DNA of 34,574 nt from Candidatus Babelota bacterium. Its GTDB lineage: Bacteria > Babelota > Babeliae > Babelales > UASB340. The DNA is taken from the NCBI GenBank assembly GCA_042576165.1, contig JBHPBZ010000003.1, positions 1 through 34,574 of the forward strand, given 5' to 3'. Below, one piece after another: positions 11,369 to 16,377 of this stretch (positions are counted from its first letter, which is position 1; each line of letters begins with the position of its first letter). The position numbers and the translations under genes are program-made. The notes under the pieces are model-generated. The model ran no database searches and was not told the DNA's origin. It was given only the letters and a program-made list of their open reading frames with translations.

Positions 11369-12439
11369 TTACTCTTCTGCCAAAAATACTTCTTCTTCAT
11401 TCTTATCAAAACCACCTGGACTAGAAATTACATCTTGTAGTTGAATTTCAACCCCAGTCAATTTTGATGCCAATAATATATTTTGACCTTTTCTACCAAT
11501 AGCAATTGAACGCTGGTCTTCCGCCAACCAAACAACTGCCTTATTATCCGAAACCAACTCAACCTTATCAACCTCTGCAGGCTTTAAGCTAATTTTAACT
11601 AAATCCTCAGTAGAATCAACCCATTCAATTAAATCAATTTTTTCTTTTCCAAGCTCTCTCAAAATAGGTTTAATTCTAGAACCACCAACCCCAACACATG
11701 TTCCAACCGGATCAATTTCCTTGCTGGTTGAAATTACAATAACTTTTGTTTTATATCCAGCAATTCTTACAATTTTTTTAATTTCAACAATTCCTTCAAA
11801 AACCTCTGGAATTTCAATTTCTAAAAGACTCTTAACAAAGTCTGCAGATACTCTATCTAAAATAAGCTGATAATCACCTTTAGCAACAGCTAACACATCT
11901 TTCAATAAAGCTCTAATAGGATGGCCAATACGAATATTCTCTAGCGGAATGCAATTTTCACTAGATAAAATCGCCATAACATCACCAACCTTAACCACAA
12001 ATCCAATACGCTCTCTTTTGTGTACAATTCCACTTATAACTGTGCCTTTTTTTTCAATAAACTCTTTATAGACAGCATCTTGCTCTAAACTTCTAATTCT
12101 GCTTGCAATAAATTGCTTTGCAGCCAAAATCTCAATACGACCAACATCTTTTTGTTCAATAGGAACATTAATAGAATTGCCAATTTCAGCATTGGAATCG
12201 AAAGCCCGAGCTTTACGCAAAGATATTTCATCAAAGGGGCTTACAACATGAGAAACAATATTTTTTTCAGCATAAACTTCAACCTCTCCACTTTTTTTAT
12301 TATACAAAGCACTTAAAATTGAATCAGGAAACTTCTTCATAAACGCAGAAAGTACTCCCTCACAAACAACCTCTACAACCTTTTCTTTATCAAGGCCTCG
12401 TTCTTCAACTAGCCCTTCAATAACAGCGGAAAGTTTCAC
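11369..12439 (-). CDS. nusA: Transcription termination/antitermination factor NusA (short form)
   Basis: GRIEILAAKQ, S1 and KH domains, DPVGTCVGVGGSRI, AIGRKGQNILLASKLTG; upstream of infB. Confidence 0.96.
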   Translation of the reverse strand: MKLSAVIEGLVEERGLDKEKVVEVVCEGVLSAFMKKFPDSILSALYNKKSGEVEVYAEKNIVSHVVSPFDEISLRKARAFDSNAEIGNSINVPIEQKDVGRIEILAAKQFIASRIRSLEQDAVYKEFIEKKGTVISGIVHKRERIGFVVKVGDVMAILSSENCIPLENIRIGHPIRALLKDVLAVAKGDYQLILDRVSADFVKSLLEIEIPEVFEGIVEIKKIVRIAGYKTKVIVISTSKEIDPVGTCVGVGGSRIKPILRELGKEKIDLIEWVDSTEDLVKISLKPAEVDKVELVSDNKAVVWLAEDQRSIAIGRKGQNILLASKLTGVEIQLQDVISSPGGFDKNEEEVFLAEE

Positions 12440-12509
12440 TTTATATTTACCCTAATATTTATGTTTGAACAATTTAGCTAAGAATTAATCAACAGACAAA
12501 CAGAACTAA

Positions 12510-12538
12510 AGCTTACCTTAAGTATAGTTTAAGGTCAA
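12510..12538 (-). promoter_or_regulatory. Candidate sigma70 promoter for the nusA-infB operon
   Basis: On the minus strand TTGACC (12538-12533), 17-bp spacer, TAAGCT (12515-12510). Confidence 0.4.
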
Positions 12539-12724
12539 AACCAAAAAAGTGAAGTCTCCTTTGATTTTTTTCCTTTTTGGTTTATGTGGATTTTTTTAAA
12601 AAACTTCCACACCCATTATTAATTTATATATATATATAAATATATATAGTAATAGATGGGGCACTTTTTTGTTGATAACTCATTTTTTTCGGGTGAAAAC
12701 TGCCGTCTGGTAGAGCTATTCGTG

Positions 12725-12767
12725 TTCCGATAAATTGTTCATAACTTGTTCATAACTTGTTCATAAC
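12725..12767 (-). repeat. Left array: 3 x 11-bp TTGTTCATAAC plus terminal TTCCGATAAA
   Basis: Units at 12735-12745, 12746-12756 and 12757-12767; reverse complement of the right array. Confidence 0.97.
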
Positions 12768-12864
12768 TTTTTTTATTGTTCGATATTGCCGTCCCATAGC
12801 ACTTTACTACAGGGCCGCCGCTGTAACCCCCCTATTTAAGGAGGTATTCAAGGAGAGACAAAAA

Positions 12865-12918
12865 GTTATGAACAAGTTATGAACAGGTTATGAACAAGTT
12901 ATGAACAATTTATCGGAA
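12865..12918 (+). repeat. Right array: 4 x 11-bp GTTATGAACAR plus terminal TTTATCGGAA
   Basis: Units at 12865, 12876 (ends in G), 12887 and 12898; inverted relative to the left array. Confidence 0.97.
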
Positions 12919-12965
12919 TAGAAATGTTCCTGCGGATTTGTTTTTTGATTTATTCTAATTGTGAT

Positions 12966-13637
12966 TTATTTTGAGTTCTTTTTAAGATTTTTGAGGATTT
13001 TTTTCATATCTTCCCATACGTTTTTTTTTGCATTAGGATTTCTTAAAAGATAAGCTGGATGAAAGGTTGGAATTACTGTATAACCATTAAAATTAAAAGC
13101 CATTCCTCGTGCCTTTGTGATTTTTATGGATTTGCCTAATAAGGCTTGGGTTGCGCAAGAACCAAGGGTACATATTATTTTGGGTTTTATGATTTCAATT
13201 TCTTTAAATAGAATTAATTTTTTGCAAGTCTCGCTTTCTTGTGGAAGAGGAAGTCTGTTGTTTGGTGGGCGACATTTTACAACATTTGAAATATAAATAT
13301 CTTCTCTTTTTAATTCCATTGCTTCAATAATTTTTGTTAAAAGTTTTCCAGCTCTTCCGATAAATGGTATTCCTTGTATGTCTTCGTCCTTTCCTGGACC
13401 TTCTCCTATAAGCATTAGTTGTGCATTTGTATTTCCGTGTCCGAATACAATTTGAGTTCTGCCTTGTTGTGACAGGGGACATTCTTGGCAGTTTTTGTAT
13501 TTTGTATAAATTTTTTCTAATAGTTTTTTATTTTTCTCTTTGTTAACTTTTGTTTTTTCATCATCTTTATACAAAAATCCGGATGGTTGTTTTTTTAAAA
13601 AGTTTAAATAGTTTTTAATTTCTTTTATTTTTGTCAT
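12966..13637 (-). CDS. udg: Uracil-DNA glycosylase family 4 (Fe-S)
   Basis: CQECPL, IGEGPGKDED, PFIGRAG, NVVKCRPPNNR, TFHPAYLLR. Confidence 0.94.
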   Translation of the reverse strand: MTKIKEIKNYLNFLKKQPSGFLYKDDEKTKVNKEKNKKLLEKIYTKYKNCQECPLSQQGRTQIVFGHGNTNAQLMLIGEGPGKDEDIQGIPFIGRAGKLLTKIIEAMELKREDIYISNVVKCRPPNNRLPLPQESETCKKLILFKEIEIIKPKIICTLGSCATQALLGKSIKITKARGMAFNFNGYTVIPTFHPAYLLRNPNAKKNVWEDMKKILKNLKKNSK

Positions 13638-15219: not shown

Positions 15220-16377
15220 TTATTTAACTAGTCCAAGTATTCCTAGAGTAAAAGCTAGATAAAAACTTAATTGAAAATCTAAGAAAAATAATTGTATTGG
15301 ATTAAATAGTAAGATTATTATGCACAATAAGCATAGCATGTGTAAAAAACTTGTTTGTTGATTATAGAATTTACCCAATTCATAAAAAATAAATATATAA
15401 AATGCTCGATAAAACGATATACTTGACCAGCTCAGCAGGCTGTAAATCATGCAAATAGATATTAAGACAAGTTGTTTTAGATATAAGCTAATCGGAATAA
15501 GGCTTAAAAGTATTTTCCAAATTAAAATGAATAAAATTACATGTAACCCTGAACGAGCAAGGTAGTGTGTAATTCCCCATTGGCCAAAATTACGACGAAG
15601 TTGATTGTTTTTGCCCGCTTTTTTATTTCCAAGGAAAATATATGAAAAATAATAAAAAGTTTGGGGTAGGAGTTTTTGGCGAATGTTTAGTAGTAGTTTA
15701 TTCTTCTTTTGATTTATCCATCTAAAAACATTGAACTTAGGTTTGTATTTGTTTTTGTAAAATAGTTTTTTGCAAAAGATTGAACACAAAACATTTTCTT
15801 TGATTTGATAATCAAGATAGTTTGGTTTTTTAATTAATGTTTGTTTAGGTTGTAGGTTTGGAATTTTGAAGTTTGTTAGTTTTATTTTGTCTCCAATTTC
15901 AATAGAACTTTTTGTTTGTGTGTAGTAATTAATATTAATATTTTTTATAGGAAGTTTTTTTGTTGTATAAAAAAATTGTTTTTTTTTATATGGAGTATTA
16001 TACGGGATGTATTTTATGCTCTTTATTTTTTTCAGGTTTAATTTGAATATTTCGCCATCTGTATTTTGCCTTTGTTCTTTATTTAGTACGATTGCTGTTG
16101 ATTTTAATCTTTTGTTTTGTAGATTTTTTAATAAACTTTGGTGATATTGCTTTTGATGTTGAATTAAGAATATTCCTGAAAAAAATATTGTTGAGCATAA
16201 AACTATTTGTAGACCATTTACTGTTGTATGATCTTTAAATAAAAATAATAAAATTCCTGCAAATATTATTGTTATTGCTAGGATTAAATTATTTAAACAA
16301 AAAAAAGTTGAACAACAAATTCCTAATAAAAGACTGAATTGAGGGAGAAATAATGGAGAAAGTTTATTTATGAACAT
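15220..16377 (-). CDS. comEC: ComEC/Rec2-family competence protein (short form)
   Basis: N-terminal TMs, OB-like region, GITHYLARSGLHV, RA and NP---DFQLSF motifs; no metallo-beta-lactamase domain. Confidence 0.8.
   Translation of the reverse strand: MFINKLSPLFLPQFSLLLGICCSTFFCLNNLILAITIIFAGILLFLFKDHTTVNGLQIVLCSTIFFSGIFLIQHQKQYHQSLLKNLQNKRLKSTAIVLNKEQRQNTDGEIFKLNLKKIKSIKYIPYNTPYKKKQFFYTTKKLPIKNININYYTQTKSSIEIGDKIKLTNFKIPNLQPKQTLIKKPNYLDYQIKENVLCSIFCKKLFYKNKYKPKFNVFRWINQKKNKLLLNIRQKLLPQTFYYFSYIFLGNKKAGKNNQLRRNFGQWGITHYLARSGLHVILFILIWKILLSLIPISLYLKQLVLISICMIYSLLSWSSISFYRAFYIFIFYELGKFYNQQTSFLHMLCLLCIIILLFNPIQLFFLDFQLSFYLAFTLGILGLVK

Follow-up and report, generated by a model that had tools for sequence, protein, structure and literature searches.

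Whether the 526-bp intergenic region between nusA and the uracil-DNA glycosylase gene udg (positions 12,440–12,965), at which the strand composition of the DNA changes, is the site where chromosome replication starts is the question raised by this locus. The window analysed, 34.6 kb in length, is an entire contig (C3) of a metagenome-assembled genome (MAG) of Dependentiae/Babeliales; the assembly comprises 779 kb in 81 contigs, is 61% complete, and has a G+C content of 28–29%. A previous sequence-only reading of the window had placed oriC in this gap on the basis of composition. Our analysis supported this view and added parts that it had not mentioned, namely an A/T-only tract, trio-like repeats, a DnaA box at the spacing of the basal unwinding system (BUS), and two inverted phased arrays of boxes. 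With a probability of about 0.93, the region 12,440–12,965 is the DnaA-dependent chromosomal origin (oriC) of this uncultured Candidatus Dependentiae (TM6, Babeliales) bacterium. The element is almost certainly an ordinary DnaA-type origin that is located far from dnaA and carries altered DnaA binding sites.

The analysis of strand composition was based on the G–C skew at third codon positions (GC3 skew), always given on the + strand, in order to separate replication bias from gene-strand bias. Left of 12.44 kb, the GC3 skew was negative in 10 of the 11 open reading frames (ORFs), the remaining one having a value of +0.02; right of 12.97 kb, it was positive in 16 of 17, with a value of 0.00 in the last one. 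Since this held for ORFs on either strand, the flip is independent of gene strand, as had been claimed, and the third-position T–A skew also changed sign at the nusA–udg gap. The 1-kb sliding GC skew rose from approximately −0.39 (11,501–12,500) to +0.07 (12,501–13,500) and was positive thereafter, and the cumulative G–C skew of the window had its minimum at 12,832, within the gap. A recount of the two 60-bp samples on which the sequence-only reading had relied gave exactly the same figures (14 C and 5 G at 12,001–12,060; 13 G and 4 C at 15,841–15,900). Elsewhere in the genome, 520 of 549 ORFs matched the majority GC3-skew sign of their own contig and 29 broke it (contigs with at least three ORFs, with C2, C3, C5, and C19 set aside), and C3 alone among the contigs of the assembly showed a clean minus-to-plus switch. 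Thus, the skew switch at the gap is far from chance.

The genes on either side of the gap agree with this picture. The nusA gene (11,369–12,439, − strand; Pfam NusA_N and KH_5) heads a nusA–infB run and is transcribed away from the proposed origin, co-directionally with the leftward fork, whereas udg (12,966–13,637, − strand; Pfam UDG) is transcribed toward it. With an origin at the gap, nusA would therefore be on the leading strand, and udg, copied by the rightward fork, on the lagging strand, as their composition shows: read on the coding strand, the GC3 skew of nusA was +0.46 and that of udg −0.43. The Pfam matches bore out the identity of both flanks, and nine of the 11 left-hand ORFs were indeed found on the minus strand. 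The reported contrast in amino acid composition between the left and right minus-strand proteins stood only in part. It was clear for V (7.6 vs. 4.2%), F (7.5 vs. 4.5%), T (3.1 vs. 5.3%), Q (2.9 vs. 4.8%), and N (5.1 vs. 7.0%), and weak for G (5.9 vs. 5.0%), K (10.5 vs. 11.7%), and I (10.3 vs. 11.1%). None of dnaA, dnaN, and gidA was present among the 28 ORFs of the window scanned with Pfam, in line with the earlier claim, and dnaN (PF02768) had no match in the 61%-complete assembly.

The gap contains eight DnaA boxes within 249 bp, of which seven are TTATGAACA and one is TTATCAACA. Compared with the canonical TTATCCACA, the repeated box has other bases at positions 5 and 6. It occurred eight times in the window against an expected 1.01, a number reached in none of 100 shuffles, and 21 times in the 779-kb assembly, where the seven copies lying within 172 bp at the gap form the sole cluster. 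These seven copies make up two opposed arrays. The left array (12,725–12,766, − strand) consists of a degenerate phased TTATCGGAA (12,725–12,733) followed by three TTATGAACA at 12,736, 12,747, and 12,758. The right array (12,866–12,918, + strand), inverted with respect to the left one, consists of four TTATGAACA at 12,866, 12,877, 12,888, and 12,899 followed by a degenerate TTATCGGAA (12,910–12,918). Start-to-start distances between the boxes are 11 and 11 bp in the left array and 11, 11, and 11 bp in the right array, with 2-bp gaps between the 9-mers. The inverted arms of the arrays are 55 nt long, 91% complementary, and 98 nt apart. The 99-bp spacer between the arrays (12,767–12,865) has a G+C content of 44%, compared with 31% for the whole gap; its sequence is variable among relatives, and it had no significant DNA fold (z-score 0.19).

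On the nusA side of the arrays lies a single box TTATCAACA (12,670–12,678, − strand), hereafter the anchor box, which has one mismatch to TTATCCACA, is oriented as the left array, and is separated from the first array box by 66 bp (6 × 11). A 14-bp spacer ATGGGGCACTTTTT (12,656–12,669), a G/C cluster followed by a T run, separates the anchor box from three DnaA-trio-like trinucleotides, TAG TAA TAG (12,647–12,655, + strand), in which 5'-TAR-3' corresponds to 3'-GAT/AAT-5' read backwards. The trios adjoin a 34-bp A/T-only tract (12,615–12,648), the longest A/T-only run in the gap and a candidate DNA-unwinding element (DUE), located 21 bp from the anchor box. According to the published search rules, a BUS consists of a DnaA box with at most two mismatches, a spacer of 0–16 bp (13 bp being the commonest), and at least three NAN trios, (.A.){3,}, with the consensus 3'-GAT-5' (Pelliciari, 2021; PMC8287927, in its available text). 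The arrangement found here, a box TTATCAACA with one mismatch, a 14-bp spacer, and the trios TAG TAA TAG, falls within these limits. The locus combines a box cluster in a non-coding stretch, an A/T-rich element beside the boxes, and a skew switch of origin polarity.

Comparison with related genomes, the synteny check that the sequence-only reading had suggested, demonstrated that the same gene order and layout recur. Forty relatives (designated G, and their loci L) were searched with the UDG protein, and 21 of these were then searched with NusA. The order common to many families of Babeliales is nusA, a gap of 450–1,070 bp, udg, and usually a C11 peptidase gene. Both nusA and udg flanked the gap in 18 of the 20 udg loci first fetched (the 1.5-kb flank contained no nusA in L009 and L012). 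The same held for 13 of another 17 genomes, in all of which nusA had been matched; as to the other four of these, G016, G020, and G036 had nusA and the arrays with no udg match, and nusA was split over two contig ends in G023. No array was found by the strict three-box pattern in G003, G007, G013, and G026. These genomes had no nusA match and, save for a contig-end fragment in G026, no udg match; therefore, the region is probably unassembled there.

The gaps of most relatives contain perfect canonical boxes, arranged as four TGTGGATAAC, a variable spacer of 90–150 bp, and four or five GTTATCCACA. Under a strict box definition, 6–12 boxes were present in 34 of 35 gaps; 24 gaps had uninterrupted runs of at least three boxes on both strands, eight had them on a single strand, and three had none. 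The combination of an A/T tract, TA(A/G) trios, a spacer, and an anchor box was present in 32 of 35 gaps; the trio-to-box spacer was mostly 13–14 bp (range 0–39), and the A/T-rich tracts at the equivalent place had an A+T content of 72–95% over 40 nt in most relatives. In 29 of 35 loci, the anchor box and the box following it were 65–67 bp apart, equal to six 11-bp steps, as though five array positions had no recognisable box. The skew flip was conserved as well: the coding-strand GC3 skew was positive for nusA in 28 of 34 relatives, and negative for udg in 29 of 31 and for the next gene in 21 of 24.

The cumulative-skew check that had been proposed along with the origin was run on the relative G027, the genome of which is a single contig of 1,525,295 bp. 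In this genome, the cumulative GC skew was lowest at 520,076 and highest at 1,264,610. The DnaA-box arrays were located at 520,241–520,435, between nusA (518,890–519,894) and udg (520,509–521,039), so that the whole-genome minimum adjoins them at a distance of 165 bp. In addition, nine of the 27 perfect TTATCCACA boxes of G027 fell into one 500-bp window at the arrays, and every other window contained one at most.

A further line of evidence comes from the DnaA protein. The C-terminal domains of the DnaA of this genome and of 39 relatives were aligned and numbered by the E. coli domain IV chain (PDB 1J1V). Base-specific contacts in the E. coli DnaA–box complex are described for R399, P423, D433, H434, T435, and H439 (in the available parts of two of the sources PMC2533591, PMC7561715, and PMC5742627), and according to a review among these sources, as far as its text was available, the helix 434–451 reads TnCACA and R399 reads TTA. 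In Babeliales, the box variant was shared by all copies of one origin and differed between lineages. The DnaA of the studied genome has Asn at position 433 (Asp433 in E. coli), and its array boxes are TTATGAACA. Asn433 was found in G000, G014, G018, G029, and G026. In G000, G014, G018, and G029, it is accompanied by the boxes TTATGAACA, TTATGAACA, TTATCGACA, and TTATGCACC/TTATCAACC, respectively; the origin of G026 is probably unassembled. Thus, G at box position 5 or 6 accompanied Asn433 in 4 of 4 genomes, compared with 0 of 30 genomes with Asp433, and all 30 Asp433 genomes with known boxes had the pattern TTATC[C/A]AC[A/C]. Similarly, the boxes ended in ACC in 7 of 7 genomes with Arg423 (with mixed boxes in G023) and in ACA in 27 of 27 genomes with Q, K, S, H, or N at this position; the sister genomes G036 (Arg423, ACC) and G016 (Ser423, ACA) differ in this way. 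Across 34 genomes, residue 433 covaried perfectly with box positions 5/6, and residue 423 with box position 9. This covariation provides good but not conclusive evidence that the repeats are sites read by the bacterium's own DnaA and that its specificity shifted in this genome. We read this as co-evolution of the initiator with its sites, in which the boxes would have changed in concert from TTATCCACA to TTATGAACA together with Asn433.

The sequence-only reading had also called for dnaA to be located elsewhere. A complete dnaA gene, with N-terminal, AAA+, and C-terminal domains, was found on contig C26 (5,715–7,136, − strand), a 10-kb contig of uniform skew. Its neighbours are a downstream ORF without a Pfam family and a tetratricopeptide repeat (TPR) protein, and no DnaA box was seen by eye in the region upstream of dnaA. 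Where the two loci shared a contig, dnaA was 457–693 kb from the origin in G022, G029, G020, G027, and G025 and approximately 433 kb from it in G016; the exception was G037, with a distance of approximately 21 kb. In six relatives, dnaA was close to a plus-to-minus skew switch, with a distance of 86 kb in G027, 46 kb in G020, 58 kb in G025, 61 kb in G022, approximately 47 kb in G029, where the switch coincides with a contig junction, and 41 kb in G010; the value for G027 was taken from the whole genome and the others from sampled stretches of 100–200 kb. These six relatives, with dnaA at 41–86 kb from a terminus-type switch, represent six families, and G010 belongs to the family of the studied genome. 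When the contigs of our assembly were compared with G010 around dnaA, the order C60, C20, C38, C26 (with dnaA), C48, C62, C51, C44, followed by C34 and C16, was obtained, and the skew signs of the contigs change between C44 and C34, matching the terminus of G010. By this synteny, the dnaA gene of the studied bacterium probably lies a few tens of kb from the terminus.

Several explanations other than an origin have to be weighed against these results. The skew flip might mark a misassembly junction or a recent inversion breakpoint, with the repeats being incidental, a possibility for which the sequence-only reading had itself allowed and which the fragmented state of the 61%-complete MAG favours. 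The same gene order, repeat layout, and skew flip are, however, present in independently assembled relatives of many families, single-contig genomes included. This conservation excludes a misassembly or a recent inversion, and the conserved order of nusA, gap, and udg contradicts the corresponding route to refutation, so that we consider this explanation extremely improbable. The inverted 55-nt arms could also be taken for a mobile element, such as a miniature inverted-repeat transposable element (MITE) or an insertion sequence, or for the iteron-type origin of an integrated plasmid or phage. Long inverted arms of this complementarity and spacing, and tandem 11-bp units resembling iterons, are features that such elements would have. 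Against this, only one copy of the structure exists in the assembly, and Pfam detected no family of Rep, transposase, or phage proteins among the 28 ORFs of the window. Throughout the order, the structure stays between the same pair of housekeeping genes, and its units are canonical DnaA boxes in relatives, tracking the sequence of the host DnaA. A mobile or iteron-type element is hence scarcely credible here.

Both E. coli and B. subtilis have clusters of DnaA boxes at sites other than oriC, and the cluster in the gap might accordingly be a DnaA-titrating or DnaA-regulated locus, either similar to datA or DARS or serving the control of the nusA–infB promoter by DnaA, with the true origin nearby or elsewhere. 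For B. subtilis, eight stable DnaA sites are given in the available part of one source (PMC2533591). Moreover, the nusA promoter must be in the gap, and DnaA binding could therefore also affect nusA expression, which counts in favour of this explanation. However, the cluster is located exactly at the skew switch in the studied genome, and in G027 the whole-genome minimum is 165 bp away from it; it is accompanied by an A/T-only tract with trios at BUS spacing. Away from the arrays, no 500-bp window of G027 reaches two perfect boxes, and the TTATGAACA cluster in the gap is the only one in our assembly. A titrating or regulatory locus in place of the origin is therefore very unlikely.

Some observations weigh against the identification of the gap as oriC. 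Other local changes of the GC3-skew sign occur in the assembly, on C2 (at approximately 12–14.5 kb) and C19 (at approximately 8.8 kb), both plus-to-minus, and the end of C5 (24–31.6 kb) is weakly minus-to-plus, with values of +0.07 and +0.18 in the last two ORFs after 21 negative ones. The genome itself is in 81 contigs, and the skew minimum reported for it is that of the window and not of the whole genome. Co-orientation of genes with replication is weak in G027 (52.3%); therefore, the fork direction was taken from the general rule that leading strands are rich in G, and from the fact that the box cluster is at the skew minimum rather than the maximum. Among the relatives, the 1,068-bp gap of G032 (L019) is without strict boxes or phased arrays and has kept an A/T tract, trios, and one TGTGGACAA box; it may represent a degraded or relocated origin, or an assembly problem. 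The boxes of the studied genome depart from the canonical sequence at positions 5 and 6, so that their binding by its own DnaA is predicted from sequence, and the trios, as to the strand on which they stand with respect to the box, are a putative match to the published BUS. The covariation offers few independent contrasts on the well-supported branches of a quick DnaA tree, three of three for Asn433 and two of two for Arg423, so few that the sign tests gave p = 0.25 and 0.5, respectively. Finally, the support as a whole consists of sequence features and their conservation. The plus-to-minus changes on C2 and C19 are, in themselves, of the terminus type or small inversions.

For the DnaA-type origin in the gap, we propose a mechanism whose binding and unwinding steps are borrowed from other bacteria. 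DnaA would bind the seven phased TTATGAACA boxes of the opposed arrays together with the anchor box TTATCAACA. An oligomer of ATP-DnaA would then extend from the anchor box across the 14-bp spacer onto the TAG-TAA-TAG trios and, by analogy with the basal unwinding system of Bacillus subtilis, open the adjoining 34-bp A/T-only tract. Each of the two inverted arrays may hold one DnaA oligomer, the two facing in opposite directions, in the manner of the left and right parts of oriC in E. coli. Helicase loading would follow, and the forks would depart bidirectionally, which would account for the C-rich to G-rich flip of the + strand at the gap.

The E. coli oriC is laid out as DUE, R1, left array, R2, right array, and R4, with opposed arrays, 2-bp gaps, and an 11-bp period. 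The proposed origin resembles it in its location away from dnaA, in an A/T-rich unwinding region followed by a box in the TGTGGATAA orientation, and in two oppositely oriented arrays of co-oriented sites with 2-bp gaps and an 11-bp period. It differs in that its array sites are identical and consensus-like for the lineage, whereas E. coli mixes strong and weak sites, and in its flanks, which are nusA and udg instead of gidA and mioC. The distance to dnaA is hundreds of kb in six relatives, compared with 42 kb in E. coli. Unlike in E. coli, GATC does not occur within 12,440–12,965; therefore, there is no sign of sequestration of the SeqA/Dam type. Origins away from dnaA are as such well known, E. 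coli being given as an example in the available text of PMC6669920.

The similarity to the B. subtilis-type BUS lies in the succession of a box, a 14-bp spacer, at least three trios matching 3'-GAT/AAT-5', and an A/T-rich tract. In the B. subtilis BUS, the orientation of boxes #6 and #7 is essential, according to the available text of Richardson (2019; PMC6669920); in contrast to this co-oriented pair, a single anchor box is present here, and the next box is 66 bp away. A precedent for a change of contact residues paired with an altered DnaA box is Thermotoga maritima, in which substitutions of domain IV contacts accompany a divergent 12-mer box (PMC6669920 and PMC7561715, as far as their text was available). 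There, several residues and the whole box differ, whereas a single change, D433N or R423, accompanies one- or two-base changes in Babeliales and recurs within one order.

Within the same phylum, the origin of Chromulinavorax destructans was assigned by GC skew and a TTATCCACA box to approximately 590 bp at 651,641–652,233 of a 1,174,272-bp genome (Deeg, 2019; PMC6561590). The comparison was made by published coordinates and does not imply the same locus. The available part of that account gives coordinates, with no mention there of nusA or udg, arrays, trios, box variants, or the position of dnaA. A literature search on Dependentiae/TM6 origins, which left most subscription journals and the earlier TM6 genome papers outside its reach, returned only this study with its preprint and a general paper on MAG curation. 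A search for natural terminus-proximal dnaA, limited to listed titles and likewise outside most subscription journals, found none.

Apart from the boxes, trios, and unwinding tract, the gap contains other sequence elements. A AAAAAAGTGAAG motif (12,543–12,554), located approximately 90 bp upstream of nusA and seen by eye, recurs in most relatives across families (L003–L021, L186–L203); it could serve nusA as a promoter or leader, or be part of the origin. The 16-nt pattern TGCCGTC, 3 nt, TAG, 1 nt, GC-like forms a direct repeat, with copies at 12,701–12,716 and 12,787–12,802, approximately 30 bp after the anchor box and approximately 30 bp after the last box of the left array, respectively. 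Relatives carry a repeated motif of their own at the same two kinds of place, for example, three copies of GGATCGATGTTTT in G037 (L188), and the repeat may be a site for a second factor. The scan for promoters and terminators gave nothing above shuffles, and neither an Rfam family above the gathering score nor a tRNA was found over the window. The Rfam matches at E-values of at most 10 within 12,400–13,000 were look-alikes of plant and animal microRNA hairpins far below the cut-off (MIR821, 59.9 vs. 249 bits); they were attributed to the inverted arrays and rejected as RNA genes.

The remaining genes of the window provide some information on the host, which is a diderm, since LpxK, OmpA, and a secretin are encoded on C3. 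A 765-amino-acid ORF (22,151–24,448, + strand) consists of tandem D-Ala-D-Ala ligase units, with Dala_Dala_lig_N and Dala_Dala_lig_C each matched in two stretches. The gene of the RtcB RNA ligase adjoins that of its activator archease (30,487–32,392, − strand), an RNA-repair pair in a reduced genome. Four ORFs of 215–684 amino acids, all on the + strand, had no Pfam family (161–2,215, 25,998–27,548, 27,545–29,587, and 29,726–30,373).

In conclusion, a DnaA-type origin is in itself of a known kind; this one is very regular, is located at a lineage-specific place, and has altered boxes matched by an altered DnaA. The result fixes the origin for a fragmented Dependentiae MAG and provides a rule for the order, which is to look upstream of nusA and not beside dnaA. 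Knowledge of the origin position helps in the orientation of contigs, in skew-based checks of assemblies, and in growth estimates from origin-to-terminus read ratios. The regular design, with one anchor box with trios and 3–5 plus 4–5 identical phased boxes, lends itself to use as a clean model for origins with two arrays. There are also two testable side results, namely the one-residue change in DnaA domain IV that tracks the box change and the location of dnaA near the terminus in six relatives from six families; the covariation and the terminus-proximal dnaA are the parts most worth pursuing. Taken together, they suggest a broader view, for and against which we see the chances as evenly balanced: DnaA and origin specificity would have changed jointly and repeatedly in Babeliales (Asp433 to Asn with G at box position 5/6; Arg423 with C at box position 9) by one contact-residue change and a concerted rewrite of all eight or nine boxes, and most of the order would have retained dnaA at a distance of tens of kb from the terminus. 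If this is true, a dnaA gene near the terminus would belong to the last gene region to be duplicated, its dosage being uncoupled from origin firing, and Dependentiae would offer a series of DnaA specificity switches made by nature, along with a natural design in which dnaA is terminus-proximal.

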